Assembly: GCA_023267595.1 (NCBI GenBank) | Contig: JAHFNB010000004.1 | Span: 182-64,181, forward strand | Length of the DNA stretch: 64,000 nucleotides | Reading direction: 5' to 3' | Source of the DNA: a bacterium | GTDB taxonomy: Bacteria; Patescibacteriota; Minisyncoccia; Phycocordibacterales; UBA5272 | In this document: piece by piece, positions 438 to 53,200 of the stretch | How positions within the stretch are numbered: position 1 is the first letter of the stretch | How the letters are laid out: every line of letters begins with the position of its first letter | Position numbers and translations under genes: made by a program | The notes under the pieces: model-generated | The model's database searches: none | Told to the model about the DNA's origin: nothing | Seen by the model: the letters and a program-made list of their open reading frames with translations, nothing else

Positions 438-1361
438 ATGTCTCTGCAAGAACGCGTACTTATTACAGGTGCTGGAGGAATGCTAGGGAAGGCTGTTTAC
501 GAGAAAGCCATTGAAAAATACGGTAAAGATTTCGTTACGGCTACTGATATTGATCTTAATGAAGAGTGGCTCTCTATGCTCGATGTGCGTGATATTAAGG
601 CGTATGAGAATGCATTTGAAACATGGAAGCCAACTATCGTATTTCATCTTGCAGCACATACTGATCTTGAATACTGTGAGAAGAATTCAACTGATGCATG
701 GGCAACAAATGCTCTTGGTGCAGAAAATGCAGCAATACTTGCTCGTAAACATGATGCACTTTTGATTTATATAAGTACCGCGGGGATCTTTGATGGAAAG
801 AAGGATGAGTATGCAGATTTCGATACTCCTTCTCCACTTGGATATTATGCAAAGTCAAAGTTTCATGGGGAAAAGTTTGTGGAACAACATCTAAGTAGAT
901 ATTATATTTTCCGTGCGGGATGGATGATGGGAGGAGGAGTACAGAAAGATAAAAAGTTTATTAACAAGATTTATAAGCAGATAAAAGCAGGCGCACAAGA
1001 ATTATTTGTCGTTGAAGATAAGTTAGGGACACCAACATACACTGTTGATTTTGCAGGAGCAATGATGAAAGTAATTGATAGTGGATACTATGGATTGTAT
1101 AATCAAGTATGTGAAGGGGGTGGAAGTCGTTATGATGTTGCAGTAGAATTCGTACAACAACTAGGTCTTACTGACTCTGTTAAAGTGACAAAAGTAACGT
1201 CGGACTACTTCAAAGAAGAATATTTTGCAGAACGACCTGCATCTGAAAAATTATTGAATGTAAAACTTTCAATGCGAGGCATCAACTATATGCGAGATTG
1301 GCGTGTGTGTTTAGCAGAGTACGCCGTAGAGTTTAAGAATGATTTTTATGGAACATTATGA
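438..1361 (+). CDS. NAD(P)-dependent epimerase/dehydratase (extended SDR family; dTDP-sugar reductase / UDP-sugar epimerase-like)
   Basis: Rossmann motif VLITGAGGMLGKAV and catalytic YxxxK (YAKSK). An internal ATG at 438 was chosen over the ORF-track start at 378 because 378-437 contains the promoter. Confidence 0.75.
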   Translation: MSLQERVLITGAGGMLGKAVYEKAIEKYGKDFVTATDIDLNEEWLSMLDVRDIKAYENAFETWKPTIVFHLAAHTDLEYCEKNSTDAWATNALGAENAAILARKHDALLIYISTAGIFDGKKDEYADFDTPSPLGYYAKSKFHGEKFVEQHLSRYYIFRAGWMMGGGVQKDKKFINKIYKQIKAGAQELFVVEDKLGTPTYTVDFAGAMMKVIDSGYYGLYNQVCEGGGSRYDVAVEFVQQLGLTDSVKVTKVTSDYFKEEYFAERPASEKLLNVKLSMRGINYMRDWRVCLAEYAVEFKNDFYGTL

Positions 1362-2775
1362 TTTTGTAGTTCTAGGAGGTGGAGTTTCAGGACTTGGTTT
1401 TGCCAAGCGTGTCAGTGAACATGGAAAGAAAGTTTTGATATTAGAAAAAGAGGATGTTGTTGGTGGCCTTTCTCGTTCACTTTTTTATAAAGGATTTTAT
1501 CTTGATTTTTGTGCGCATCGTTTCCATACGAATAATAAAGAGTTACTTCATGAAGTAATGACACTCCCAGGGCTTGATATGAAAAAACATATCAAGAAAA
1601 GTCGTATCTATATGTTCGGTAAGTGGCTCAAGTATCCTTTTGAAATACAACAATTACTCGTTGCCATGCCTATTCATCAGAGTTTTGTAAGCGGCATGTC
1701 ATTTGGGTGGAATCTTCTTACAAAAAAGTTTCGAAAGACAAGTAATCTCCAATCATACAAAGAATGGTTTATTCATCTCTATGGGAAACAACTTTATAAT
1801 GTAATGTGTTATCCATATACATCGAAGATTTGGCATTATGATCCAGGGGAAATATCGGCAGATTGGGCAGATCAACGATTCCAAGGGGAGAATCTCAAGA
1901 AACTCTTTAAACGTGTGATTAAAAAGATTCTGACACTTGATTTCTCTAGTTATGATTTAAAAGATGATTCTCTTGCACCAGATGGTGGTCCATTTTATTA
2001 CCCATTGCGTGGTATTCAAGAAATGTGTGATGCACTTGCTCGTGCGGCGACTACTACAGGAACACAGATAGTAACGAGTGCAACAATTACAGGTGTTCAT
2101 ACTGGAGAAAAAACAGTTACCTATAGTGTTAATGGTGAGACAAAAACGGTGACTTATGGCGGGCTTATTTCTACAATACCGATGCATCAGTACTATGCTC
2201 TTCAAGAACGAAAGGATAAAGATGTAGAAAAGGCATTACATGATATTAAATACATGGATATTATCTTCGTGTTTGTATTTCTCAAAGTCCCTCAGGTTTC
2301 AAACGATCATTGGTTATATTTCCCTGACAAAGATATTATCTTCAATCGTGCAGTAGAGTTTAGTAATTGGTCACCAGAGATGTGTCCACCTGGTAAAACA
2401 TCAATTTGTTTTGATATTACAACATTTAAAGAAAATAAAGAGTGGAATATGTCAGAAGAAGAATTAAAAAAGAAAGTGATTGATGATGCAGTACGTGTAG
2501 GATATATCAAACGTGAAGATGTAGAAGATGCTCTTGTTACAAAAATAGAGTATGCATACCCATTCTATGATCTTGATTATAAACGAAAATTAGACGTCAT
2601 TATGCATCATCTAGAACATAATGATGTCGCACTTCTTGGTCGCACAGGGATGTTTAAATACAATAATTCTGATAATTCTATTGAAATGGGATTTGCGCTA
2701 GGGGATGAATTTTTGAAAAAAGATGGAAAGCATTCGGTATACGAATATAAAGTAAAAGCACCAGTGAGTTATTAA
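1348..2775 (+). CDS. FAD-dependent oxidoreductase (amine-oxidase / UDP-galactopyranose-mutase-like)
   Basis: N-terminal FAD dinucleotide-binding motif DFVVLGGGVSGLG...LEKEDVVGG. Overlaps the upstream gene by 14 nt; the alternative start is 1339. Confidence 0.65.
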   Translation: MEHYDFVVLGGGVSGLGFAKRVSEHGKKVLILEKEDVVGGLSRSLFYKGFYLDFCAHRFHTNNKELLHEVMTLPGLDMKKHIKKSRIYMFGKWLKYPFEIQQLLVAMPIHQSFVSGMSFGWNLLTKKFRKTSNLQSYKEWFIHLYGKQLYNVMCYPYTSKIWHYDPGEISADWADQRFQGENLKKLFKRVIKKILTLDFSSYDLKDDSLAPDGGPFYYPLRGIQEMCDALARAATTTGTQIVTSATITGVHTGEKTVTYSVNGETKTVTYGGLISTIPMHQYYALQERKDKDVEKALHDIKYMDIIFVFVFLKVPQVSNDHWLYFPDKDIIFNRAVEFSNWSPEMCPPGKTSICFDITTFKENKEWNMSEEELKKKVIDDAVRVGYIKREDVEDALVTKIEYAYPFYDLDYKRKLDVIMHHLEHNDVALLGRTGMFKYNNSDNSIEMGFALGDEFLKKDGKHSVYEYKVKAPVSY

Positions 2776-4305: not shown

Positions 4306-5820
4306 TTACACTCCACGCAAAACGGTTATTTTCGCTCCAATCGCGTTTAATCTCTCGGCAATATCTGCATACCCACGTTTTATAGAATAGACGTTTCTGA
4401 GCAAGGATGTGCCTGATGCTCCAAGCATTGCAATCAGAATAATTGCCGTAGGACGAAGTGCAGGAGGGGATACAATTTGTGCACCGCGCAGTTTGGTCAC
4501 TCCTGTAACTAGTGCTCGGTGTGGGTCGAGTAATTTTATATCTGCACCGAGTCTGTTTAATTCCGTAAAATAAATAGCACGATTCTCCCATGTCCAATCA
4601 TGAATAAGTGTTTGACCAGAGGCTATGCAACTAATGGGGACAAAGAAAGGGAGATTATCATTATTAATACCGGGAAAAGGTTGTGCATGTATCTTATCTG
4701 TCGGAGCAATGATTTTTGAAGGAAATATAGTGATATCGACAAGTGAAGTTCTGCCATTTTTTGCAAAATATAATTTTGAAAGGGTAAAACGTAATCCCAT
4801 ACGTTTTAATTTTTCTAATTCGAGTGTAAGAAATGTAATTGGTGCACGTGTTATGGTGAGTTTGGATTTTGTCACGATTCCTGCGGCAATGAAGAACATA
4901 CTCTCTATTGGATCTTCACTATTGTAGTGTTCGATATTTACATCGATATCCTTTTTCCCATGTACTATAAGTGTTGTGGTACCAATACCTTCTATTACTA
5001 TACCAAAACTCTCTAGGAGGAAACATACATCTTGTACTTGATAATTTGGTGGTGCAAACATAATAGTTGTTTTCCCTTCAATACGTGATGCGGCCAGAAT
5101 TGCAGTAATCGCACCAGTGTCAGATGATTCGTAGAGTGGAATAGTCCCCGTATGTAGTTTTCTATATGAAATATCGTAGTGGTTTTCTTTTGTCTCGACA
5201 TTAATACCAAGGTATTCTAGAGCATATTTATGTGATGCAACCGTGCGTTCACCCATTTTACATCCACCAGAATGTGGAAGTGTAAAATGATTACCATAAT
5301 GAACAAATGCACCCGCAAAGGTAAATGATCTAATTTGTGTTGCAACGGCTTTGTCTATTTTTGAAAAAGAAAGTTTCTTAGGGGGTGTGATTTCAAGAGC
5401 AGTGTCATCATATATCCACTTTATCTTTACACCGACACTTTCGAGCAATTCTTTGTAGCGATGTACTTCTTCTATGTGGGGGATATCACGTAAAATAGTC
5501 GTGCCATTATTGACGAGTGCAGCAACCATCATATTGATGGCACCATTTTTTGAGGTATTTGTCTTTATACTACCTGAAAGTTTATGACCACCCTCTACTT
5601 TGAAATCAATAGCATTGTGAATACTCACTATGTTGTGTTTAAGGACGTCGCTCATCTTCATGAGTTGGTCTATAGTTACATTTTGATTTCCTGATTCTAT
5701 GCGCGCAACTGCAGACTGGGATGTTTTGAGAGACTTTGCAAATTCTCCTTGCGTCATTCCACGCTCTTCACGTAGTTTTTTTATGAAAAGTCCTATTTTT
5801 TCTTGATCATTAGGAGGCAT
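4306..5820 (-). CDS. murA: UDP-N-acetylglucosamine 1-carboxyvinyltransferase (MurA) fused in frame to an N-terminal XRE-family helix-turn-helix domain
   Basis: Residues 10-55 (IGLFIKKLREERGMTQGEFAKSLKTSQSAVARIESG) form an HTH_3 domain. The remainder aligns to MurA, including the catalytic loop GGCKMGERTV (E. coli GGCTIGARPVD) and the C-terminal RGYADIAERLNAIGAKI. Confidence 0.8.
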   Translation of the reverse strand: MPPNDQEKIGLFIKKLREERGMTQGEFAKSLKTSQSAVARIESGNQNVTIDQLMKMSDVLKHNIVSIHNAIDFKVEGGHKLSGSIKTNTSKNGAINMMVAALVNNGTTILRDIPHIEEVHRYKELLESVGVKIKWIYDDTALEITPPKKLSFSKIDKAVATQIRSFTFAGAFVHYGNHFTLPHSGGCKMGERTVASHKYALEYLGINVETKENHYDISYRKLHTGTIPLYESSDTGAITAILAASRIEGKTTIMFAPPNYQVQDVCFLLESFGIVIEGIGTTTLIVHGKKDIDVNIEHYNSEDPIESMFFIAAGIVTKSKLTITRAPITFLTLELEKLKRMGLRFTLSKLYFAKNGRTSLVDITIFPSKIIAPTDKIHAQPFPGINNDNLPFFVPISCIASGQTLIHDWTWENRAIYFTELNRLGADIKLLDPHRALVTGVTKLRGAQIVSPPALRPTAIILIAMLGASGTSLLRNVYSIKRGYADIAERLNAIGAKITVLRGV

Positions 5821-40937: not shown

Positions 40938-43556
40938 ATGTCTTTAAAGAAACAAGAATCACATAATAAACATTTAGAAAGTATCATTGTTCGTGGTGCG
41001 CGAACTCATAATCTCAAAAATATTACTGTTGAGATGCCGCGTCACACAATGATAGTTTTTACTGGTCTTTCAGGATCAGGGAAGTCATCTCTTGCATTTG
41101 ATACTATTTTTGCCGAAGGACAACGTCGTTATGTAGAATCTCTATCTGCATATGCACGTCAATTTTTGAATCAAATGCAAAAGCCAGATGTTGATGAAAT
41201 AGTTGGCCTTTCTCCTGCAATTTCAATAGATCAAAAATCTGCTGGAAGAAATCCTCGATCAACAGTTGCAACGATTACAGAAATATATGATTATCTCCGT
41301 GTGCTTTATGCACGTGTAGGTAAACCATATTGTGTAGATTGTGGAGCAAAAATACAAAAACTTTCTAATGAGGAAATCATTCATTTTATTTTAGATAAAG
41401 TAAAGGCAGTTGATTTTAAGAAAATAAAGAAAGAAATGCTTGGTGTGGAGTTCTCTCATGCAGAATTACATATTATGGCGCCACTTGTGCGTGGACGAAA
41501 AGGAGAGCATTATCAAATGCTTTATGACATGTTAGGAAAAGGGTACACCGAAGCAGTTGTAGATGGTGAGAGAAAATCTCTTCGTGAACAGATAGTACTT
41601 TCAAAGACTAAGAAACATGAGATTTCTATAATCGTGGACTCTATTGCGTTGGATGATTTTCGTTTAAAAGCAAATGAAAAAGATGCAATGATTCGTCTTT
41701 CAGAAGCAATTGAACGAGCATTACATGAATCAAATGGATTACTTGAAATAGAAATTTTAGGTGAGAAGACTATTATGAGTAATAAGTTTTCATGTGCAAA
41801 TTGTGGTTTTTCTTTTCCAGAAATTGAACCTCGTCTTTTTTCTTTTAACTCACCCTATGGTGCGTGTCCTACGTGTAATGGTCTTGGTACAAAATATTTT
41901 GGGGGATTAGATGCGTGTGATGATTGTCACGGGAAGCGTCTTAGACCAGAAGCACTTCATGTATATCTTGATGATAAAGAAAAAATAAATATTGTAGATA
42001 TTACTGCACTTTCTATTAAAGATGCGCAGGCATATTTTGCACGTATCCCTCTTACAAAAAAAGAACAAGAGATTGCGTCTGTGGTGATTAAAGAAATAGA
42101 GTCTCGTCTTATATTTATGCTTGATGTTGGACTTGATTATCTTTCACTTAACCGTAAAGCAGATACATTATCTGGTGGAGAAGCACAACGTATACGCCTT
42201 GCATCACAACTGGGATCAAAACTTGTAGGAGCACTCTATGTCCTTGATGAACCAACTATTGGTCTTCATCAACGTGATAATGATAGATTAATCAAGACAC
42301 TTCTTCATCTGCGTGACATGGGAAATACTATTATCATAGTAGAGCATGATGAAGATACTATTTATGCATCAGATTATATTGTTGATATTGGTCCAAAAGC
42401 AGGAGTACATGGAGGAGAAGTTGTTGTATCTGGATATTTAGATGAATTATTAACTGCTCCAAAAAATAAATCCGGCAGTGTAACACTTTCATACCTTCGT
42501 GGAGAAAAAGAGATACCTGTTCCTGCTCGTCGTGAACAAGATAAGGGAACTATTAGAATTACTGGTGGAAATATCTTTAATATTAAGGATATGAATGTAT
42601 CACTTCCACTTGGAAAATTAACGGCAATTACAGGAGTATCAGGATCTGGTAAGAGTTCATTTATGTATGAAATTTTACACAGAAATCTTCTCGCACGTTT
42701 AGAACGTCGTCATAGAAGTGCACAGGTACACAATGTGACTTCAATTACAGGAACTGAGTATCTTTCACGTGTGGTATTGATTGATCAAGGTGCAATTGGT
42801 CGCACACCACGTAGTAATCCTGCGACATACACTGGCGCATGGACTCATATTCGAGATTTATTTGCTGAATCTGAAGAAGCACGTATTCGTGGATGGAAGG
42901 CATCACGTTTTTCTTTCAATGTAAAAGGTGGACGATGTGAAGCATGTCAGGGAAATGGTGAAATTGCAGTAGAGATGCACTTTTTACCAACAGTGTATGT
43001 GCAGTGTGATGTATGTCAGGGAAAGCGATTCATGAAAGAGACACTTGAAGTGAAGTGGAAAGGAAAAAGTATTTACGATGTGTTACGTATGACTGTCGAA
43101 GAGTCACTTACTTTTTTCCAAGACATTCCTGCCGTTTATGATCGAGTAAAAACACTTGATGATGTAGGACTTGGATATCTTGAACTGGGACAATCTGCAA
43201 CGACACTCTCTGGTGGGGAAGCACAACGTGTAAAAATTTCTTCAGAACTTTATCGTCCTCATGTAGAAAAAACAATATATCTTTTAGATGAACCGTCTAT
43301 CGGGCTTCATTATGAAGATATAGCAAAGTTAATTGAGATATTAAATAAACTTGTTGATAAAGGAAATACGGTTGTACTTATTGAACACAATCTCGATATT
43401 GTAAAAAATGCGGACTATATTATCGATATTGGTCCTGAAGGTGGTGTAGGGGGTGGAAATATTGTTGCAACAGGTACTCCAGAGACAGTTGCAGGAAATG
43501 TAAAGTCGTATACTGGTCAGTATCTCAAAAAAGTTTTAAAGAAAAGTAAGAAATAG
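40938..43556 (+). CDS. uvrA: excinuclease ABC subunit A
   Basis: Two ABC ATPase modules (GLSGSGKSSLAFDT, LSGGEAQR x2) and the zinc-finger Cys pairs. Confidence 0.95.
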   Translation: MSLKKQESHNKHLESIIVRGARTHNLKNITVEMPRHTMIVFTGLSGSGKSSLAFDTIFAEGQRRYVESLSAYARQFLNQMQKPDVDEIVGLSPAISIDQKSAGRNPRSTVATITEIYDYLRVLYARVGKPYCVDCGAKIQKLSNEEIIHFILDKVKAVDFKKIKKEMLGVEFSHAELHIMAPLVRGRKGEHYQMLYDMLGKGYTEAVVDGERKSLREQIVLSKTKKHEISIIVDSIALDDFRLKANEKDAMIRLSEAIERALHESNGLLEIEILGEKTIMSNKFSCANCGFSFPEIEPRLFSFNSPYGACPTCNGLGTKYFGGLDACDDCHGKRLRPEALHVYLDDKEKINIVDITALSIKDAQAYFARIPLTKKEQEIASVVIKEIESRLIFMLDVGLDYLSLNRKADTLSGGEAQRIRLASQLGSKLVGALYVLDEPTIGLHQRDNDRLIKTLLHLRDMGNTIIIVEHDEDTIYASDYIVDIGPKAGVHGGEVVVSGYLDELLTAPKNKSGSVTLSYLRGEKEIPVPARREQDKGTIRITGGNIFNIKDMNVSLPLGKLTAITGVSGSGKSSFMYEILHRNLLARLERRHRSAQVHNVTSITGTEYLSRVVLIDQGAIGRTPRSNPATYTGAWTHIRDLFAESEEARIRGWKASRFSFNVKGGRCEACQGNGEIAVEMHFLPTVYVQCDVCQGKRFMKETLEVKWKGKSIYDVLRMTVEESLTFFQDIPAVYDRVKTLDDVGLGYLELGQSATTLSGGEAQRVKISSELYRPHVEKTIYLLDEPSIGLHYEDIAKLIEILNKLVDKGNTVVLIEHNLDIVKNADYIIDIGPEGGVGGGNIVATGTPETVAGNVKSYTGQYLKKVLKKSKK

Positions 43557-43574
43557 TTGTTTTGGTAATAAAAA

Positions 43575-43603
43575 AGGCGATGCCGTAGCATCGCCTTTCC
43601 TGC
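43575..43603 (+). terminator. hairpin aggcgatgc-cgta-gcatcgcct after uvrA
   Basis: 9-bp perfect stem preceded by an A-run, with a weak T-tract after. Confidence 0.5.
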
Positions 43604-43609
43604 AGTCTT

Positions 43610-43930
43610 TTATAACTGAGGGTTGTTTTGTCTTTCTGTACCCTCTTGTATTGGCACATACCCCCCGTAGTGCACCCTCGAGTGGCATGCCGGACGAGTA
43701 CTCTCAACCTTAGTACCATCAGGGAGTACCCGAACTTCGGGAGGCAAGGGTTTATCCGGCCTCTCGCAGTTTTGACAGTCGTGCCTTCCGTGCTTACACG
43801 GCATGATTCTCCTCCTCCTGTATCTGTTCAATTACATGTGGTACAAGACTCTCCACCCCAAGAGGTGATGGGTCATTTCTTGTTGGCCAAGGCCAACGAA
43901 GCCTTATGCCAAATGCTTGTGCAGATGTCG
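43610..43930. ncRNA. GC-rich structured non-coding island (candidate housekeeping or other structured RNA; identity unresolved). An alternative reading is a 64-aa Cys-rich ORF with a strong SD on the minus strand, 43610-43804.
   Basis: Marked GC enrichment over the flanks. Several local hairpins (ccgtg-ctta-cacgg, cccg-aactt-cggg) and a palindrome gttggcc-aa-ggccaac. The minus strand carries aggaggaggagaatcATG. Confidence 0.3.
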
Positions 43931-44061
43931 TAATAATGTGTTGAATATTCACAGTAAAACCTTTTTCTAGAACTTTTTTAAAGAACTTCTTCCCTTTTCA
44001 CATCTAGCAATTTGGTTGCCCATAAGTTGCCAAAGTGAGTATTTATAGTACAATACATTTT

Positions 44062-45276
44062 ATGAAAAAGCAAGCCTTGTCCACACTTTCACTCCCAGAT
44101 TTTCCGGGGGTCTATTTTTTTCGTGATAAAGAAGGGAATGTTTTATATATTGGAAAAGCAACATCACTTAAGGATAGAGTCAGAAGTTATTTCAATCCTG
44201 ATTTAATGAAACAACGTGGATTACGTCTTGTAACCATGGTAACGATTGCAGATACTGTTACCTATCAAAAAACAGAAAGTGTTCTCGAGGCATTACTTCT
44301 AGAAAGTAAATTTATCAAAGAATATAATCCACCATATAATGCAAAAGAAAAAGATAATAAAAGTTTTACCTGTGTTGTGATTACCAAAGAAAAGTTTCCA
44401 CGAGTATTAACCATGCGGATACGAGATTACGAGAAACGATTTTCTAAAAAAGATGTTTTGAAGGTATATGGTCCATTTGCTTCTCTTACCCAATTGCGAG
44501 AAGCAATGAAAATTATACGTAGAATGTTTCCTTATCGAGATAGATGTGAACTACATCAACTGAAGCCTTGTTTTAATGCACAGATACGATTATGCCCAGG
44601 AGTATGTGTTGGGTTAATTTCTGAAGTGGAATATAAAAGACATATAGACAATATTAAGAAATTATTTGAAGGTAAAAGGACAGAAATAAAGAAAAGCCTG
44701 GAAAAAGAAATGCAGGATTATGCAAAAAAACATTTATTTGAAAAGGCAGGAACCGTGAGAAATACACTCTTTGCACTTGATCATATAAAAGACATAGGAT
44801 TAATTAAAGAAGAGGATATATTGTCTTTTAAGAATAATGATTTTCGTATCGAAGGCTATGACGTGGCACATATTTCAGGAAGTTCTCGGGTAGGAGTAAT
44901 GACAGTTATTGTCGGTAGGGAAAAAGAAAAGGATGAGTATAGAAAGTTTAAACTTCCAGAACATATTAATGATGACTATGCAGGATTACGAGAAATACTC
45001 ATTCGTCGCTTTTCTCATAAAGAATGGCGTTATCCAGATCTTGTTGTTATAGATGGTGGTGTGGCACACAAACAAACTGCGGAAAAGGTTCTTGCACACT
45101 TAGGACTACTTATCCCTGTTGTTTCTGTAGTGAAAGATGAACGTCATAAACCAAAGGACATACTGGGAGATAAAGTACATGTGGATTACCATAAAAAGGA
45201 AATACTTTTATCAAATTCTGAGGCACATAGATTTGCTATTGGGTATCATAAAACATTACGAAATAAGGTCGTATAA
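44062..45276 (+). CDS. uvrC: excinuclease ABC subunit C, compact form lacking the C-terminal (HhH)2 domain
   Basis: GIY-YIG (GVYFFRDKEGNVLYIGKATSLKDRVRSYF), a UVR-like segment, and the EAHRFAIGYHKTLR endonuclease motif at the extreme C-terminus. Confidence 0.8.
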   Translation: MKKQALSTLSLPDFPGVYFFRDKEGNVLYIGKATSLKDRVRSYFNPDLMKQRGLRLVTMVTIADTVTYQKTESVLEALLLESKFIKEYNPPYNAKEKDNKSFTCVVITKEKFPRVLTMRIRDYEKRFSKKDVLKVYGPFASLTQLREAMKIIRRMFPYRDRCELHQLKPCFNAQIRLCPGVCVGLISEVEYKRHIDNIKKLFEGKRTEIKKSLEKEMQDYAKKHLFEKAGTVRNTLFALDHIKDIGLIKEEDILSFKNNDFRIEGYDVAHISGSSRVGVMTVIVGREKEKDEYRKFKLPEHINDDYAGLREILIRRFSHKEWRYPDLVVIDGGVAHKQTAEKVLAHLGLLIPVVSVVKDERHKPKDILGDKVHVDYHKKEILLSNSEAHRFAIGYHKTLRNKVV

Positions 45277-45400: not shown

Positions 45401-48331
45401 ATGTCTATTCTACAAACTATTAAAAAGCGAAATGGTGAGATTGTTTCTTTTGACGCCGAGAAAATAGAAAGAGCAATTAAGAAAGCATTCTTGAGTGTTA
45501 CTCGGGATGAAAAGGCTCCAATTGCCAAGCATATCACCGAACTTGTAGCCAAAGAATTAGAACTAGAAGCCATTACGCGGGAGGGATATGTGCCATCTGT
45601 AGAACACACACAGGACTTAGTAGAAAAGAACATCATGAGTGCAGGATTTTTTGATGTTGCTAAGCATTACATTATTTATCGTTTTGAACACGCAAAAATT
45701 CGTGAAGAAAAGAAGCAGGAGATTCTCGAAAAGGTAGAAGAAGGAGGGCTTTATATTACGAAGAAGGATGGAACAAAGCAAAAGTTTGATCTTGAAAAAG
45801 TTCGTTTTGCTATTAACAAAGTTATTCACGGATATGAAAAAGAGATTAATGTTGAACAGATTTTAAATCAAATAAAATTGGAAGTGTACGAAGCAATGCC
45901 AACCAAAGAAATCAGTAAGGCTCTCGTGATGACGGTGCGATCACTCATTGAACAAGATCCGGCATATGCATATCTCGCATCACGATTAGTTCTCGTACAG
46001 ATTAATGAAGAATTAATCGGAAGTGATGTTCTTGATTATACAAATATTGATGAACAATATAAAAATGCATTCGTAACAGGAATACGAAAAGGTATTGAAC
46101 GTGGGATACTTGATCTTCGTATGGCTAACTTTGATTTAGGACGTCTCGCATCTTCTCTTGTACGATCACGTGATGAACTCTTTATGTATTTGGGTACTCA
46201 GACATTATATGAGCGATACCTTGCGCGTGATGTAGAAGGGGATGGACGCATTATCGAACACATTCAGGGATTCTGGATGCGTATTGCTATGGGGGTTGCA
46301 CTTGCAGAAAAAGAACTTGATCGTACAACACGAGCAATAGAGTTTTATGAGGCAATGTCGACACTACGTTTTGTACCATCATCACCAACACTTTTCCATT
46401 CAGGAACAAAACATCCACAACTATCTAGTTGTTACTTAAACACAGTAGGAGATTCACTTGAAAGTATCTTTAAGGTGTATGCAGATAATGCACAACTATC
46501 AAAATGGGCAGGAGGAATAGGGACTAATTGGTCACGTGTGCGTGCGTCAGGTGCCCTTGTGAAAAAATCAGGTATTAAATCAAATGGTCTTGTTCCATTC
46601 CTCAAGATTGCTAATGACGTAACAGTTGCTATTAATCGTTCTGGTCGTCGTCGTGGGGCAACATGTGTGTATTTGGAAAATTGGCATCTTGATGTAGAAG
46701 AGTTTCTAGATCTTCGCAAGAATACGGGCGATGATCGTCGTCGTACTCATGATATGGATACTGCATTATGGATTTCAGATCTTTTTATGAAGCGTATTCA
46801 AGCAGATGCAGATTGGACACTCTTCTCACCAGATGAAACACCGACACTCACTGAAACATACGGAGCAACATTTGAGAAAAATTATATCCAATATGAAAAA
46901 GATGCAGATGAAGGGAAGATAAAATTATTCAAACACATTAAAGCACGTGAACTATGGCGAAAAATGGTGACTATGCTTTATGAAACAGGACACCCTTGGA
47001 TTACATGGAAAGATCCATCAAACATTCGTTCTCCACAAGATCATGCCGGTATCGTTCATAACTCAAATCTCTGTACAGAAATTACTCTTAATAATAGTGA
47101 AGAAGAAACAGCAGTGTGTAATCTCGGATCATTAAACTATCAACGTCTTATGCGTGATGGAAAGTTCGATGTTGATATGGTAGCAAGTACAACGCGTACA
47201 GCAATTCGTATGCTCGATAATGTCATTGATGTAAACTTTTATCCAACAGTAGAAGCAGAGCGAAGTAATTTTCGTCATCGACCAATTGGGCTTGGTCTTA
47301 TGGGATTCCATGATGCACTCTATATGATGAATATCAATTTTGATTCTGAGGAAGCAGTAGCCTTTGCAGATGAATCAATGGAACTTATCTCGTATCATGC
47401 CATCTTGTCATCTGCTATGCTTGCACGTGAAAAAGGTGCTTACTCAAGTTATAAAGGAAGTAAATGGGATAGAGGAATATTCCCTGTTGATACCTTATCA
47501 CTTCTTGAACAAGAGCGTGGAATGGATGTTCCAATTTCAAAAGCAGGGAAATTAGACTGGACTCCAGTACGTGAAGCAGTGAAGCAATACGGTATGCGAA
47601 ATTCAAATACCATGGCCATGGCACCAACGGCAACGATTTCAAACATTGCAGGGTCTGTTCCATGTATTGAACCAACATATAAAAATATTTATGTGAAATC
47701 AAATATGAATGGTGAGTTTATTATTCTTAATCCATACCTAGTTGCAGATTTGAAAGCACTTAATCTTTGGGATTTTGAAATGATCGGTATGCTTAAGTTT
47801 CACGATGGATCATTAAAAGATATTCCGTCTATTCCACTTGCGGTAAAAAATAAATACAAGGAAGTATTTGAGATTGAACCTTCATGGATTATTCGTTCTG
47901 CTGCACATCGTGGTAAGTGGGTAGATCAATCACAGTCACTTAATATTTATTTTGCAGGGACATCAGGTCGTGAACTTGCAAGTATTTATGAATATGCATG
48001 GTCTGTAGGACTTAAGACAACATATTACTTGCGATCACTAGGTGCATCACAAGTGGAGAAGAGTACAGTAAATGCGTCAGAGTTCGGTTCTACACATAAA
48101 CGTGATGCAGGAGAATCAGTCTCATCATCTATAACTTCTGAAGTGTCTGTTCCATCACTAGTGTCTATGCCTGTATCTGCACCTGTTGCACAAGTCTCTA
48201 CAGTTGCACCGATTATGTCTATGGTTCCACCAATGATACCGAAAGAAACTGTAGAAGTACTCGCACAGAAACCAAAGATGAAATACAACATCACGGTAAT
48301 GCCAGAAGCAACATGTGATGGATGTCAGTAG
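45401..48331 (+). CDS. nrdA: class I ribonucleoside-diphosphate reductase alpha subunit with an N-terminal ATP-cone and an extended low-complexity C-terminal tail
   Basis: ATP-cone (KRNGEIVSFDAEKIERAIKKA), active-site SNLCTEI, and the terminal redox pair CDGCQ. Confidence 0.9.
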   Translation: MSILQTIKKRNGEIVSFDAEKIERAIKKAFLSVTRDEKAPIAKHITELVAKELELEAITREGYVPSVEHTQDLVEKNIMSAGFFDVAKHYIIYRFEHAKIREEKKQEILEKVEEGGLYITKKDGTKQKFDLEKVRFAINKVIHGYEKEINVEQILNQIKLEVYEAMPTKEISKALVMTVRSLIEQDPAYAYLASRLVLVQINEELIGSDVLDYTNIDEQYKNAFVTGIRKGIERGILDLRMANFDLGRLASSLVRSRDELFMYLGTQTLYERYLARDVEGDGRIIEHIQGFWMRIAMGVALAEKELDRTTRAIEFYEAMSTLRFVPSSPTLFHSGTKHPQLSSCYLNTVGDSLESIFKVYADNAQLSKWAGGIGTNWSRVRASGALVKKSGIKSNGLVPFLKIANDVTVAINRSGRRRGATCVYLENWHLDVEEFLDLRKNTGDDRRRTHDMDTALWISDLFMKRIQADADWTLFSPDETPTLTETYGATFEKNYIQYEKDADEGKIKLFKHIKARELWRKMVTMLYETGHPWITWKDPSNIRSPQDHAGIVHNSNLCTEITLNNSEEETAVCNLGSLNYQRLMRDGKFDVDMVASTTRTAIRMLDNVIDVNFYPTVEAERSNFRHRPIGLGLMGFHDALYMMNINFDSEEAVAFADESMELISYHAILSSAMLAREKGAYSSYKGSKWDRGIFPVDTLSLLEQERGMDVPISKAGKLDWTPVREAVKQYGMRNSNTMAMAPTATISNIAGSVPCIEPTYKNIYVKSNMNGEFIILNPYLVADLKALNLWDFEMIGMLKFHDGSLKDIPSIPLAVKNKYKEVFEIEPSWIIRSAAHRGKWVDQSQSLNIYFAGTSGRELASIYEYAWSVGLKTTYYLRSLGASQVEKSTVNASEFGSTHKRDAGESVSSSITSEVSVPSLVSMPVSAPVAQVSTVAPIMSMVPPMIPKETVEVLAQKPKMKYNITVMPEATCDGCQ

Positions 48332-48371: not shown

Positions 48372-49451
48372 ATGGAACCAATAACTTCACAACCCCAAAC
48401 AAATATTACTGCAAAACCAATCATCGATCGTAGTGCAGGGCGTGTTGATGTAAATAAACGAAAGATAATCAATGGAGAAGGTGCAGATGTTGTACAATTG
48501 TGGCCGATAAAGCATAAGTTCGCATGGGACGCCTATAATGTTGGTAATGCAAATCACTGGCTTCCTACAGAAATCAGTATGCAATTAGATATCGAGCAAT
48601 GGCGATCACAAACATTCCTCACACCAGATGAACGTCATGCACTTAAGATGGTATTAGGATTCTTTACAACCGCAGACTCAATTGCGGCGAATAATCTCGT
48701 ACTCGCGTTTTACAAACACATTACTTCACCAGAGGCACGACTCTATTTGCTTCGTCAGGCATATGAAGAGGCAATACATACCCAAGCCTATCAGTATATT
48801 GTAGAATCGCTCGGACTAGATGGTACAGAAATATTTAATATGTATCGTGAAGTGGATGCGATTTATGATAAGGAGGAGTTTATCCTTTCTTTTAATCAGG
48901 GCATCTTTGATCCAAATTTTAAGACGGGAACATTTGTCAATGATCAAAAGTTTTTGGAAAACATGTGTGTGTTCTCGCTCATCATGGAAGGCATCTTTTT
49001 CTACTCATCATTCGCGGTTATATTTGGATTTCAACGACAAAATAAATTGGTTGGGTCTGCAGAACAGATTCAATATATTATGCGTGATGAAAGTACACAT
49101 ATGAATTTCGGTATTGATATGATAAATACAATTAAGCAAGAGCAACCAGAACTTTGGACTCCTACTTTTGTAGAAAGAGTTACTAATCTTGTACGAAAAG
49201 CAGTAGAACTAGAATACAAATTTGCAGTTGATGTATTTCCAAAAGGGATATTTGGATTAAATGCAGAAGGGTTCAAGCAGTATATAGAACATATCGCCGA
49301 TAGACGTCTTTCACGTGTAGGAATAGATCCAATATATGGTACTGCGAATCCATTTCCATGGATGAGTGAGGCGGTTGATTTAAATAAGGAAAAGAATTTC
49401 TTTGAGACGAGAGTTACAGAATATAAAACCGGTGGGACATTGGCTTGGTAA
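48372..49451 (+). CDS. nrdB: class I ribonucleotide reductase beta (radical-generating, ferritin-like) subunit
   Basis: Di-iron ligand region EEAIHTQAYQYI with the conserved E/H pairs. Confidence 0.85.
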   Translation: MEPITSQPQTNITAKPIIDRSAGRVDVNKRKIINGEGADVVQLWPIKHKFAWDAYNVGNANHWLPTEISMQLDIEQWRSQTFLTPDERHALKMVLGFFTTADSIAANNLVLAFYKHITSPEARLYLLRQAYEEAIHTQAYQYIVESLGLDGTEIFNMYREVDAIYDKEEFILSFNQGIFDPNFKTGTFVNDQKFLENMCVFSLIMEGIFFYSSFAVIFGFQRQNKLVGSAEQIQYIMRDESTHMNFGIDMINTIKQEQPELWTPTFVERVTNLVRKAVELEYKFAVDVFPKGIFGLNAEGFKQYIEHIADRRLSRVGIDPIYGTANPFPWMSEAVDLNKEKNFFETRVTEYKTGGTLAW

Positions 49452-49484
49452 CTAATCAAGATATTTGAATTAGAAAATAAAATA

Positions 49485-49509
49485 CTGGGGTGGATTACTC
49501 CAGCCCCAG
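49485..49509. terminator. convergent terminator ctgggg(tgga-ttac-tcca)gccccag between nrdB and the minus-strand operon
   Basis: Nested GC stem; T-rich on the minus-strand side. Confidence 0.55.
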
Positions 49510-49523
49510 ATTTCAGGAAGTCT

Positions 49524-49907
49524 TTACTTTTTGATTTTTTTTGGATGACGTTTCGGTTGAATTGATGCTTCAGGAAGTCGAGGAATGTGTTCATGAATAC
49601 GGAGGAGAATTCCTTCCATTCGTAGAACGGCATCACCGACGATACTTCTTTCATCATAGACGCCACTCACTACGGATTCGCGAAGTTTTGCGATATGTTT
49701 CTCTATTTCTCCAATGTCATGGGAAATGAGTATGAGTGCCTCACAAGTACAACTCTTTCCATTTTTGAGGAGGCGAATTTTGAATTCTTCGGGGATAGGT
49801 TTACCAGAAGGTGGCTGCACACTTCTACTATCTCCATAAACACGTTGTAATCTTGCTTCTCTATCAAAATGCCTTTTTATGCTTCGCACACTGCTCTCCT
49901 TATTCAA
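49524..49907 (-). CDS. hypothetical protein (127 aa, basic C-terminus)
   Basis: ORF; second gene downstream of the structured leader. Confidence 0.45.
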   Translation of the reverse strand: MNKESSVRSIKRHFDREARLQRVYGDSRSVQPPSGKPIPEEFKIRLLKNGKSCTCEALILISHDIGEIEKHIAKLRESVVSGVYDERSIVGDAVLRMEGILLRIHEHIPRLPEASIQPKRHPKKIKK

Positions 49908-49916
49908 ATGTTTGAA

Positions 49917-50258
49917 TTATTGTAACGTGTGTTTGCCATAGTATGGAACAAAGTGGTCACTCTTTATTTTCTCCATGAGTGCTTCTTCTAATCTTCTTTG
50001 TTCCGCACCATCTAATTCGTCAAAGAATTTATTGATACCTTTATCATCGAGCATAGAGTTGAGTATCAGTTCTTGCAAACTGAATACTTCAGATATGACT
50101 AGTTTTTTCTTTTCGTATGCCTCAACTAGGAAAGATATCGCATTGATCTGTTCATCGAACCACTCACTTCTTGTATTGTCATAAAGAACGATACGTAACC
50201 TGTTGCCATCCTCACTTGTTTCGATATGAGCAACTGGCACATTTTTGTCTTTTTTCAC
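49917..50258 (-). CDS. hypothetical protein (113 aa, GTG start, acidic)
   Basis: ORF beginning with GTG and no SD; first gene downstream of the leader. Confidence 0.4.
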   Translation of the reverse strand: MKKDKNVPVAHIETSEDGNRLRIVLYDNTRSEWFDEQINAISFLVEAYEKKKLVISEVFSLQELILNSMLDDKGINKFFDELDGAEQRRLEEALMEKIKSDHFVPYYGKHTLQ

Positions 50259-50330
50259 GGAGGGTATCCTTTAACGAGAACAATTTATTACATCTTATAA
50301 CTACCAAAAGTCTATGTCAATTTTACCAAT

Positions 50331-50355
50331 AAAAAAGGGCAGGAAGTTCCTGCCC
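50331..50355 (-). terminator. intrinsic terminator gggcagg-aactt-cctgccc plus U6 at the 3' end of the leader, about 65 nt before the 49917-50258 gene
   Basis: 7-bp GC stem followed by tttttt on the minus strand. Confidence 0.75.
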
Positions 50356-50525
50356 TTGTCGGGGTATGACCGACTTTACAAGTGCGGTCGATTTCTAGCT
50401 GCGAGATTGTGGCGGTGACTTGCTATCCGCCGCCTCTGACTGATTTGACCAAGCCTCTTGCGAGGCAGGGCACGGAAACAGGGGTTACGTCTTCTTTTCG
50501 ACATTTTACCTCCGTGGTTGTTCTA
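50356..50525 (-). ncRNA. GC-rich structured leader / candidate riboswitch or small RNA, with an embedded 42-codon Arg-rich ORF (about 50376-50504) carrying a GGAGG SD
   Basis: Consensus promoter upstream and terminator downstream. Hairpins gaccg...cggtc and ggcgg...ccgcc. The 5' segment guuuccgugcccugcc can pair with the 5' half of the terminator, which would be an antiterminator-like arrangement. Confidence 0.4.
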
Positions 50526-50531
50526 GATAAG

Positions 50532-50561
50532 ATACTACCATAAAGAATATACTCTTGTAAA
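50532..50561 (-). promoter_or_regulatory. promoter TTTACA-N18-TAGTAT on the minus strand driving the leader
   Basis: Reverse complement of 50532-50561. Confidence 0.55.
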
Positions 50562-50603
50562 TAATCGTGTACTCACTGATAGTTTTTAGGTATACTTATA
50601 CAT

Positions 50604-51545
50604 ATGTTACACGTCTCAAAATCACTTCCTGATATTGCAGTGATTCGCGGAGGAGCAAAAGAATTTGATATTTCTCTGTCTGAAGGAAAAGAAGTATTAC
50701 AATCACTTTCAAGAATCGGATACAAACCAATTGATGTTATTATTTCTCGTGATGGAGAATGGAATGCAAATGGTGTACCAACAGATGCACATACTATTTT
50801 TACAAAATCTCATACCACAATAGACACAACACGTACTCGTGATGAATCATATCACACACTTGCAAAGAAAATGGAAATACCATTGTTACTTTCACATGGA
50901 AATAATATGTCTCTTGATAGAGAAGATGTGTACCGATTATTACGTCAACAGGGAATACGTGTACCAGATACAGTGACTATACGTGCGCAACAACCACTCA
51001 AAGACAGTATGTTTCGTGATTTATGGACGACGTATCATACACCTCTTATGGTGCGACCACTTGTGCGACGTAATGATGCGCCGACAAAACTTATAAAAAT
51101 ATTTCCAGAATTAGAAAATGTCATTCGTACCTATCATGATAAAGGAATAGATATGCACATACTTACATATCGTAAAGCACCGACATCATCTATTGCAGTG
51201 CTACCAGATTTTCAAGGGGAACGTTTGTATACCCCACTTTGGGTAGAAACATTTGCGAGTATGAGTGATGTTCCAAATAGTACTTCGCCAATGCGTGTGC
51301 ATCATAGTGCGCCAGATTTTCGAAAAGAGCAGATAAAAGATTTTGTAACCAAGGTATATGATGCTCTCGATCTTTCAGGTCCTGTTTGTATAGATATTAT
51401 TCCGCATAATAATGAATATATTGTTGTGAATGTTGATACACATCCATCGTTACGCAAAGATAGTCGCTTCTCACAATCTCTTGCCTCAACAGGTGCAACT
51501 ATTGGTCAGTACATTCATTCACGTATTTTGAAAGAGAATATATAA
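50604..51545 (+). CDS. D-alanine--D-alanine ligase-like ATP-grasp protein (divergent; the ATP-grasp motifs are degenerate)
   Basis: N-terminus IAVIRGGAKEFDISLSEGKEVLQSL resembles the Ddl N-domain. The central and C-terminal ATP-binding motifs are not clearly conserved. Confidence 0.4.
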   Translation: MLHVSKSLPDIAVIRGGAKEFDISLSEGKEVLQSLSRIGYKPIDVIISRDGEWNANGVPTDAHTIFTKSHTTIDTTRTRDESYHTLAKKMEIPLLLSHGNNMSLDREDVYRLLRQQGIRVPDTVTIRAQQPLKDSMFRDLWTTYHTPLMVRPLVRRNDAPTKLIKIFPELENVIRTYHDKGIDMHILTYRKAPTSSIAVLPDFQGERLYTPLWVETFASMSDVPNSTSPMRVHHSAPDFRKEQIKDFVTKVYDALDLSGPVCIDIIPHNNEYIVVNVDTHPSLRKDSRFSQSLASTGATIGQYIHSRILKENI

Positions 51546-51559
51546 TATAGTATTTAATT

Positions 51560-51680
51560 AATTTATTGCATTAGATGCAAGGCGTGGAGTGTTTGTGAGG
51601 AGATGTAGATAGAACTACGTTGACGAACAAACGAGGCTCCACAACACAGCAGATGATGTAATAAATTAATTAAAGAAAAA
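51560..51680. repeat. long imperfect inverted repeat (ttaattaatttattgcat ... atgtaataaattaattaa, 17 of 18) enclosing about 80 bp with internal gtggag/ctccac pairing
   Basis: Read directly; could fold into a hairpin of about 120 nt. Confidence 0.5.
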
Positions 51681-51689
51681 GAAAATACG

Positions 51690-51730
51690 CGCCTCTGGTA
51701 AGTGTCGCGTATTTTCTTTTGTTACTTTTT
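51690..51730. terminator. bidirectional terminator aaaatacgcg-cctctggtaagtgt-cgcgtatttt
   Basis: 10-bp stem flanked by an A-run and a T-run. Confidence 0.6.
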
Positions 51731-52014
51731 ATTCAAAAGTGACGTCTTTGTTTGATGCGTTACGGTTGCTTCTGGCTTCCGTTTTTTGTTAGCAGATCCT
51801 TACGAATCTACTTCCAGTTGTTTTGAAGCCGCATCTGCTTTTTTATCGGCATTGATGTAAGCAGTTTATAATCTACTCACATCTTTATAGACTTCAAGAA
51901 CCCATGTTCTTTTTTCTAGTACTAAAAGCTGATAATAATGAAACAACTGTCTACCACTAGTGTACCAACCCTGCGTGATATACTCAAGTCATACAAGGGT
52001 AGTTATTCACATAT

Positions 52015-52419
52015 ATGTCATACATAGGAAATATACAACAGTTGGTAATGAGGAACGATAATTTTCGAGAAGTCATCTTTACAGGTAAGAAATCTCAACT
52101 TGTAGTTATGTCTATTCCAGTATCAGGTGAGGTTGGGGAAGAGGTTCACACAGGCGTAGAACAAACATTATATATAGTCTCAGGTATTTGTGATGTTGTA
52201 TTAGATGGTGTAACAACACAAGTAAGTGGAGGAGATGTTGTTGTTGTGACACCACATACACGACATAATTTTATTAACAAAGGAACAGAAGTTGTAAAAA
52301 TTATTACAACCTATTCTCCGCCGAATCATGTTGATGGAAAAATTCATGTCACGATAGATGATGCACGTAATGATAGAGAAGATGAAGCATTTTCAGATGA
52401 GGCAAATAAAAATAGTTAG
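52015..52419 (+). CDS. cupin-domain protein
   Basis: Small beta-barrel pattern with G...H.H..E and G......H motifs (VHTGVEQTLYIVSG ... VVVTPHTRHNFINKG). Confidence 0.55.
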   Translation: MSYIGNIQQLVMRNDNFREVIFTGKKSQLVVMSIPVSGEVGEEVHTGVEQTLYIVSGICDVVLDGVTTQVSGGDVVVVTPHTRHNFINKGTEVVKIITTYSPPNHVDGKIHVTIDDARNDREDEAFSDEANKNS

Positions 52420-53200
52420 TAATCGCGATATTCTTTTTATAAAAAAAGTTATTTCGTACCATACAATCTATGGGAGACATACTTTACCATGGAGGAAAAA
52501 TATTTCTCCGTATAAAATTCTTGTTAGTGAGATAATGCTTCAACAAACACAAGTCTCTCGAGTACTTCCCAAGTTTTTGCTATGGATGAAGAAATATCCA
52601 AGTTTACAATCTTTACGTAGGGCATCTCTTAAGGATATCTTAGTTTTATGGCAGGGTTTGGGTTATCAGAGAAGAGCAAAAGCACTTTACACAATAGCAC
52701 AATCTCATGTGCGTATTCCGCACACATTTGAAGCATTATGTGAACTCCCGGGAATAGGGAAGTATACGGCCTCTGCAGTATGTGCTTTTGCGTATAATAC
52801 ATTTACGTACCCAATGCTTGAGACAAATATTCGTACGGCACTCATAGAAGAGTTTCATATGGAAAAAGAAAAAATCCATGATGGAATACTTTACGATACT
52901 CTTGATCGTCTTACAAAAAATAAACATGTACAAAAAATTGGTGCGCGTGCATGGTATTTTGCACTTATGGATTACGGTGCACATTTAAAAGAACAGCATA
53001 TTTCTCATAATGCAAAAAGTACACATTATGTAAAGCAATCCCCATATAAAGGTTCAATACGTGAACTTCGTGCAAAAATTCTTTTTGCTATCACACATAC
53101 ACAAGAAGTTCCAAAAGATATACGTACACAAAAAGTTCTAGAACAATTAATAAAGGAGGGATATGTTATCCAAAAAAGAAATTCTTATATTATTTCGTGA
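52397..53200 (+). CDS. HhH-GPD superfamily DNA glycosylase (MutY/Nth-like) lacking the 4Fe-4S Cys cluster
   Basis: LPWRKNISPYKILVSEIMLQQTQV, GLGYQRRAKAL, HhH LPGIGKYTASAV. No CxxxxxxCxxCxxxxxC. The start is uncertain (52358-52397). Confidence 0.7.
   Translation: MRQIKIVSNRDILFIKKVISYHTIYGRHTLPWRKNISPYKILVSEIMLQQTQVSRVLPKFLLWMKKYPSLQSLRRASLKDILVLWQGLGYQRRAKALYTIAQSHVRIPHTFEALCELPGIGKYTASAVCAFAYNTFTYPMLETNIRTALIEEFHMEKEKIHDGILYDTLDRLTKNKHVQKIGARAWYFALMDYGAHLKEQHISHNAKSTHYVKQSPYKGSIRELRAKILFAITHTQEVPKDIRTQKVLEQLIKEGYVIQKRNSYIIS

Follow-up and report, generated by a model that had tools for sequence, protein, structure and literature searches.

The flagged stretch described here lies in a 64,000-nt segment of bacterial DNA (the window, in whose positions all coordinates are given unless a related locus is named), between the ribonucleotide reductase (RNR) genes and a gene for a Ddl-like ATP-grasp protein, hereafter ddl. 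It comprises, on the minus strand, a promoter, a GC-rich segment of about 200 nt holding an arginine-rich 42-codon open reading frame (ORF), an intrinsic terminator and two further genes. We find that the unit from promoter to terminator is best explained as a free-standing, fast-evolving, lineage-specific and probably non-coding small RNA (sRNA) gene, with a probability of roughly 55%. A preliminary description had read the same anatomy, every part of which is present where it had been placed, as a candidate riboswitch or T-box-like leader, a leader-peptide attenuator, a dual-function small RNA or an unrecognized small basic protein. That the unit controls the two following genes as a riboswitch or attenuator is not supported, and a layout of promoter, GC-rich leader, terminator and gene is not in itself the sign of a riboswitch. 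At the level of sequence the unit has definable boundaries, the genes behind it have an independent and conserved promoter, relatives keep the gene where the unit is absent, and the ORF is non-coding by its statistics; a discrete RNA species, its functionality and its mode of action are what we infer.

The unit starts at a promoter of the form TTTACA-18-TAGTAT (50561..50532, minus strand). Its extended -10 aligns with TGT-TAGAGT of the positional analogue in locus L007, and the ddl-adjacent RNAs of relatives have the same -10 type, TGnTAnnnT. Only a few bases lie between the -35 elements of this promoter and of the ddl promoter. The RNA body (50331..50530) has a GC content of 0.55–0.56 in 100-nt windows and a 120-nt maximum of 0.57, about 4 s.d. 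above the window-wide value of 36.6% (mean 0.366, s.d. 0.05), and is one of four islands with GC of at least 0.52 in the 64 kb, tRNA-Trp being another. The unit ends in AAGGGCAGGA-ACU-UCCUGCCCUU followed by U6 (50357..50329, minus strand), a hairpin of -16.5 kcal/mol with a pairing probability of about 1.0. A stringent scan of both strands of the whole window (a perfect stem, 9 bp or longer and with five or more G-C pairs, then T5) found two sites, this terminator among them, and none in 30 Markov shuffles, so that the terminator is far beyond chance.

Including its terminator, the RNA folds more stably than shuffled sequences (z-score -3.9). Both the minimum-energy and the centroid predictions are multi-branched with a separate 3' hairpin, and leave unpaired a C-rich stretch, AUACCCCGAC, just 5' of the terminator. 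The RNA sequence is identical across three independent assemblies from different samples. No tandem repeats were found in 50250–50620.

Alignment with relatives indicates that the two genes behind the terminator have their own conserved promoter, which the preliminary description had not noticed. This second promoter is one of three 10/12 matches that top the promoter scan of the region; it occupies the gap of about 70 nt that separates the terminator from the GTG of the 113-aa gene, beginning about 10 nt past the U tract. Related loci (labelled L004, L007, L060 and so on) were fetched with alignment-based scans via the adjacent ddl gene, the 113-aa protein being an orphan. In the nearest relative, L004 (Ddl 82% identical), the RNA element is absent: 115 nt lie between ddl and a 114-aa gene whose product is 32% identical to the window's 113-aa protein (E 5e-12). 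The L004 promoter and 5' untranslated region (5'UTR; TTGACA...TAGTAT...AAUUGUUCU) align with the second promoter of the window and its AAUUGUUC 5'UTR, and it is because of this alignment that we take the promoter to be conserved and to belong to the downstream genes. Set against L004, the RNA unit is an indel of about 240 bp that lies between ddl and the second promoter.

Other relatives likewise separate the unit from the genes. In L007 (Ddl 71% identical) a GC-rich unit, complete with promoter and terminator, occupies the same position and precedes a 108-aa gene; L060 (Ddl 66% identical) has a 100-aa homologue of that gene (35% identity) and a common 5'UTR motif without the RNA unit. The motif itself, CAAUCCUAAGACGAYAGAGG...GGUACUUGUYCC.UC.ACAAGA (L007 ~4690..4610 and L060 ~1170..1060, minus strand), is possibly a cis-regulatory hairpin. 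In all, 19 related loci carry an extended -10 promoter, a GC-rich segment of 120–270 nt and an intrinsic terminator head-to-head with ddl on the opposite strand. In 16 of these 19 the ORF that comes next is convergent, and those units therefore have nothing to regulate in cis. The content of the spacer between ddl and its neighbour varies from genome to genome.

As described previously, the first of the downstream genes encodes 113 aa from a GTG, and its codon score is higher in frame than in either off-frame. The second was also found, as 127 aa from a TTG; it may instead encode 121 aa from the GTG at 49889, which has AAGGAG in front of it and which public gene calls adopt as the start. A word-indexed database search with the 113-aa protein found only itself, and the profile searches that had been proposed placed neither protein in a family of Pfam, NCBIfam, PADLOC or PHROGs. 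Neither gene has a link to arginine or any metabolite, and there is no metabolic operon.

The alternative pairing that had been proposed as an antiterminator can be drawn: CCUGCC (in GUGCCCUGCC) pairs over 6 bp with GGCAGG of the terminator 5' half, and does so in the best fold of an RNA truncated before the terminator 3' half. In the full RNA, however, the forced fold is 13 kcal/mol worse (-56.0 versus -69.0 kcal/mol) and has zero equilibrium probability; taking the comparative data into account as well, we regard the pairing as probably incidental. The preliminary description could assign no riboswitch class, and Rfam 15 agrees. Over the whole window at gathering thresholds it matched tRNAs only, and on 50200–50650 at E<=10 it gave only terminator-driven partial matches far below gathering, with none to T-box or RF00013. 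A search for tRNA and tmRNA in 43 loci found none.

The 42-codon ORF has the composition that had been claimed for it (12 of 42 codons Arg, behind a GGAGG Shine-Dalgarno (SD) sequence), and most likely encodes no functional protein. Its codon log-likelihood is -0.98 bits per codon, against +0.33±0.16 for genes and a typical out-of-frame value of -1.12, and lies below that of every in-frame 42-codon window of the long genes. Among its arginine codons are two CGG and two AGG, the rarest in the genes (0.3 and 0.7 per 1,000), and its three codon positions barely differ in GC content (0.55/0.57/0.52, compared with 0.52/0.36/0.23 in genes). It is absent from gene calls, has no homologue among 5.8 billion proteins or 1.84 billion representative proteins, and matches no family in four hidden Markov model (HMM) libraries that include Pfam, NCBIfam, PADLOC and PHROGs. 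Its SD and ATG are both paired in the predicted minimum-energy fold. No ORF is common to the ddl-adjacent RNAs, many of which are ORF-free; the L054 analogue has a stop codon where the common nucleotides lie. The ORF is most likely a by-product of the GC- and purine-rich composition. A by-eye resemblance of the peptide to ribosomal protein L34 (FRA, RRR spacing) was rejected, as there was no Pfam match at E<=1.

One other part of the window bears on codon usage as a criterion. The other GC-rich intergenic island that is not a tRNA (43610..43831, minus strand; GC up to 0.58) contains a 64-aa Cys-rich orphan ORF (CxxxxxxCxxC) behind a strong SD, AGGAGGAGG, and is annotated as a protein. The codon score of this ORF is -0.73, and the fold z-score of the island, -0.65, is unremarkable. 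A hairpin and T-run near 43575 end this unit and are the only other site passing the stringent terminator scan; a separate terminator scan of 43500..44100 called none.

Genuine RNA genes occupy the position next to ddl in this clade, because three groups of ddl-adjacent RNAs in relatives (A, B and C; Table 1) show compensatory base changes. In group A these fall in 11 of 30 pairs (RNAalifold), and there is a conserved internal loop, GUCGCC..hairpin..GGUCGAUUC, with the hairpin loop CCUCAUAACCC. Group B has a covarying closing helix (CUACG/CGUAG, CUACA/UGUAG, CUGCG/CGCAG), with 96% of cells paired and 12 pairs compensated when the alignment is fitted to the model; pairing is also possible between an internal AAGGUG and a 3' anti-SD-like CACCU(C/A), and would make a pseudoknot with the closing helix. 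Group C has a long-range helix of 8 bp that contains a conserved bulged A (AGGUAaCC/GGUACCU); 5 of the 8 pairs are compensated. Groups A and C may form one superfamily, because the group A model matches the 5' domain of a group C member, L040 (E ~0.003–0.012). Rfam found no relevant family in the related loci, at gathering thresholds in 20 loci and at lenient E-values in 7; for group A this negative rests on L014, since the scan left out L042, L043 and L052.

The window RNA resembles these groups in its position and orientation, head-to-head with a leaderless ddl-like gene, in its extended -10 type, GC-rich body and intrinsic terminator, and also in its short 5' motif, YCYACGS, and in the pyrimidine-rich stretch that precedes the terminator. 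It differs from them in having neither the GUCGCC..GUCGAUUC internal loop nor, by eye, the bulged-A helix of group C. Covariance models were built for group B (R1), group A (R2) and the window RNA (R3). R1 and R2 recover their own groups; run with filters off on 48500–52500, they found nothing on 50329–50531 at E<=10. R1 also matched inside the RNR large-subunit gene (47628..47761, plus strand; 25.7 bits, E 3e-4, GC 0.32), a match judged spurious, and because of it the E-values of these quickly calibrated models, which are rough, need caution. The window, L007 and L054 units resemble one another only in the promoter and in the first 40 nt or so (AACAACYACGG.AG; GAAAAGA..CGUUAYCCCCUG), and no consensus structure emerged for the three (-7.5 kcal/mol, with an unfavourable covariation term of +0.56).

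Table 1. Features of the flagged region and its flanks, and ddl-adjacent RNA genes in related loci (positions of related loci are those of the locus named).
Feature	Position	Strand	Remarks
-35-like hexamer TTTACA of the RNA promoter	50556..50561	-	Promoter scan and sequence; back-to-back with the ddl promoter
Extended -10, TGG-TAGTAT	50532..50540	-	Promoter scan; TG two bases 5' of the -10
Predicted small RNA, ~195–200 nt	50329..50526	-	Predicted start ~7 nt past the -10, predicted end in the U tract
Intrinsic terminator stem-loop, 10 bp and 3-nt loop	50335..50357	-	U tract reaches 50329
SD-like GGAGG	50509..50513	-	4 nt 5' of the ATG; buried within helix CACGGAGGU/ACC..UCCGUG of the predicted fold
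42-codon Arg-rich ORF (12 Arg; two RRR runs)	50376..50504	-	Most likely no functional protein
Second promoter, TTGACA-17-TAAGAT	50292..50320	-	10/12 match; probably serves the two downstream genes; aligns with L004
113-aa orphan gene, GTG start	49917..50258	-	Homologous to the L004 114-aa gene; outside the RNA unit
127-aa orphan ORF, from TTG at 49907	49524..49907	-	Outside the RNA unit
RNR genes	45401..48331 and 48372..49451	+	One flank of the flagged region
Ddl-like ATP-grasp gene	50604..51545	+	Other flank, divergent to the RNA unit; Pfam, NCBIfam
ddl -10, TATACT	50591-50596	+	Seven bases 5' of the ATG at 50604
Group A, ~160-nt RNA genes with promoter and terminator	L014 2419..2260, L043 1406..1248, L052 2417..2256, L042 2435..2271	-	Head-to-head with ddl
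Group B, 125–200-nt RNA genes adjoining ddl	L049 2459..2264, L012 2459..2258, L017 736..567	-	
Group B, further members	L024 2460..2301, L025 2460..2302, L053 2217..2094	-	
Group C, 210–275-nt RNA genes adjoining ddl	L010 2399..2188, L011 2383..2110, L032 930..660, L033 2384..2111	-	
Group C, further members	L037 2388..2127, L040 2384..2165, L041 2448..2190	-	

On the reading that we favour, RNA polymerase would start at the extended -10 promoter, back-to-back with the promoter of the leaderless ddl-like gene, and make a GC-rich, moderately structured RNA of about 200 nt before stopping at the strong intrinsic terminator; the two genes behind would be transcribed from their own promoter. The product is most likely non-coding and would act in trans, either by binding a protein or, as in free-standing sRNAs, by base-pairing through an exposed segment, for which AUACCCCGAC is the candidate. 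This comes close to the small RNA option of the preliminary description, of which the dual function is disfavoured by the non-coding statistics of the ORF.

A possible target lies nearby. The first 23 nt of the RNA and the 5'UTR and start of the 113-aa gene (50509..50530 versus 50256..50283) contain two complementary blocks: UUAUCUAGAACAA/UUGUUCUCGUUAA, with 11 of 13 positions matching, and 5' CACGGAGG, which pairs perfectly (8/8) with CCUCCGUG across the GUG start. In 371 nt, chance alone would yield each block about 0.7–1 times, and the two are not arranged collinearly, as one duplex would require. An RNAduplex target prediction over 58 gene starts was discarded for its unrealistically long duplexes.

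Several observations weigh against a free-standing non-coding RNA. Bare promoter matches occur at chance density (15 in 4.5 kb against 16.8 expected), and without the terminator the fold z-score is only -2.8. The closest relative, L004, lacks the unit, which could therefore be young or dispensable. An nhmmer search for homologues of the window RNA across all loci found only itself, as did one with the L007 RNA; R3, run on the set of 50 loci, likewise recovered only itself, and there is no covariation support for the window RNA structure. The perfect GGAGG 4 nt before the ATG makes a small-peptide function possible, and the L007 analogue likewise has GGAG, an ATG and a 38-codon basic ORF in the same place. 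Finally, the codon-usage argument is weakened because the GC-rich 43.6-kb unit, whose codon statistics are just as poor, has been called as a protein gene.

A broader version of the RNA reading, which we hold only tentatively and think doubtful, is that the ddl spacer of Paceibacteria is a conserved home of fast-evolving, GC-rich, structured sRNAs, of which the window RNA is a diverged member acting on translation starts. Many group A, B and C RNAs end in the anti-SD-like CACCU(C/A) segment, and as a diverged member the window RNA might target its own neighbour, with CACGGAGG on CCUCCGUG at the GUG start of the 113-aa gene. We think it unlikely that the unit is a gene for a small basic protein, or a dual-function RNA, with the 42-aa peptide read from GGAGG-ATG as the product or one of two. 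Besides its ribosome-binding site and start, the analogous ORF in L007 and the 43.6-kb precedent, this explanation can draw on an arginine content that exceeds mononucleotide shuffles (12/42, p=0.0014 uncorrected) and on the rapid evolution of the neighbouring orphans (32–35% identity), at which rate a 40-aa peptide could lose detectable similarity. It is opposed by the codon score, the two CGG and two AGG codons and the missing GC periodicity, by an SD and ATG that are paired in the predicted fold, by the empty protein-database and HMM-library searches, by the stop in the common nucleotides of L054, and by the lack of BLASTP similarity between the window peptide and the L007 38-codon ORF.

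Quite unlikely, in our estimate, is a non-functional or merely structurally useful insert, either young GC-rich DNA in a changing spacer that is transcribed by accident, or a promoter and terminator that matter less through the RNA than by competing with or insulating the divergent ddl promoter and the downstream promoter. The unit is absent from the nearest relative, spacer content changes between genomes, the RNA body has no homologue and the RNA and ddl -35 elements nearly adjoin, all of which fit an insert. Yet the 64 kb contain just two terminators of this quality, shuffled sequences fold less stably than the RNA, many relatives have RNAs with compensatory changes at the corresponding position, and three assemblies carry the identical sequence. 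Very improbable is a transcription attenuator (a riboswitch, a T-box-like element or an Arg leader peptide) whose read-through feeds the 113-aa and 127-aa genes, a reading largely refuted by the comparative data. Its geometry fits, CCUGCC pairs with the terminator 5' half in the best fold of the nascent RNA, and the ORF has two RRR runs. A conserved promoter nevertheless stands between the terminator and the genes, two orphans that nothing connects with arginine or another metabolite; L004, and L060 compared with L007, keep the gene without the element; and 16 of the 19 analogous units face a convergent gene. Moreover, no structure is common to the positional analogues, Rfam has no match down to E<=10, T-box included, and the antiterminator fold is 13 kcal/mol worse at zero equilibrium probability. 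A leader peptide in particular fails on the orphan genes with their own promoter and on the non-coding statistics of the ORF. We therefore retain the free-standing sRNA gene as the best account of the unit.

The surroundings of the unit are those of a patescibacterial genome. The window sequence is found in metagenome contig k141_7566441 of ENA ERZ27279942, and the closest named relatives of its Ddl-like protein are of Candidatus Paceibacterota and Nomurabacteria; the similarity of this protein to Ddl families is weak (Pfam E 1e-7; far under the cut-offs in NCBIfam). With only seven bases between -10 and ATG, the ddl-like gene looks leaderless. Every related locus examined has a TATACT -10, often TGnTATACT, about 7 nt 5' of the ddl ATG. 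Just upstream of this -10, 15 of the relatives' loci (L010, L011, L032, L033, L036, L008, L015, L014, L043, L030, L034, L054, L059, L053 and L009) have tandem direct repeats, two to three copies of ~10–12 nt, whose unit depends on the lineage: TTAGCTAGTAGC/TTAGCTGTTAGC, GGTTAGTGGCTGGTGACTAGTGG, TTATAGGGACTAGGGACTAG or GCTGGAAGCCCGAAGCTGGAAGC. These repeats may be a co-evolving operator; the window has no clear counterpart of them.

Some related loci contain further RNA-like arrangements. L053 has two tandem RNA units, each with its own promoter and terminator (2408..2094, minus strand), and L036 an internal tandem duplication of a unit of ~95 nt (2405..2151, minus strand), in which CCCGUCGRCAAUGCGUCCGUUUCGGGGG occurs twice. 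A leader-like element, CACAUAUGAAUAUCUGC..hairpin..GAGCNAUUUUCURUUAU, is present on the minus strand of L013 (~2400..2230), L018 (~2400..2240) and L049 (~2210..2090), and precedes a gene of about 200 aa in L013 and L018. It matched nothing in Rfam at gathering (L013, L018) or at E<=5 (L049), and is a better riboswitch candidate than the window element.

To our knowledge, almost nothing has been learned of regulatory RNAs in the ultra-small, uncultured Patescibacteria (the candidate phyla radiation, CPR). If expressed, the unit would add one lineage-specific small RNA, a modest gain. Of more value is the wider pattern of structured, covarying RNAs outside catalogued families beside a leaderless ddl-like gene, and the ddl-adjacent groups are a good starting set for CPR-specific RNA families.

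Several known systems can be set beside the unit. SRP RNA, RNase P, tmRNA, 6S RNA and T-box were considered by eye and rejected, their defining motifs being absent and Infernal giving no match; for 6S RNA, the multi-branched window fold is not a rod with a central bubble, and RF00013 had no match at E<=10. The relatives' RNAs contain two RNase P look-alike segments, GUCGCCGC and AAGUCCGG. Attenuators share with the unit the order promoter, GC-rich leader, hairpin and U tract, genes, and the possible alternative pairing; the conserved second promoter, the independence of element and genes in relatives and the lack of a conserved aptamer set it apart from them. In type III toxin–antitoxin systems such as ToxI/ToxN, an antitoxin RNA with tandem direct repeats of ~36 nt precedes the gene of a toxin endoribonuclease. 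The window has the same order of promoter, small RNA, terminator and protein gene, but no tandem repeats, no PADLOC match downstream and a separate promoter for the proteins. Dual-function sRNAs are represented by SgrS/SgrT, RNAIII/delta-haemolysin and SR1/SR1P, in which, as in the window, an SD-preceded short ORF lies within a small RNA; here, however, relatives do not conserve the peptide, its codons are used as in non-coding sequence, and base-pairing in the predicted fold sequesters the ribosome-binding site. Free-standing trans-acting sRNAs have their own promoter and Rho-independent terminator, an example being the C-rich sRNAs of the RsaE/RoxS type in Firmicutes. The window RNA differs from the sRNAs in Rfam in having no sequence or structure homology to them and in being confined to one lineage among the 50 loci. 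Like free-standing sRNAs, it has its own promoter and a strong intrinsic terminator and is predicted to be structured, in the size class of 100–200 nt; like the RsaE/RoxS type, it presents a C-rich segment, AUACCCCGAC, that is unpaired before the terminator in the predicted fold, and has no tie to the downstream gene.

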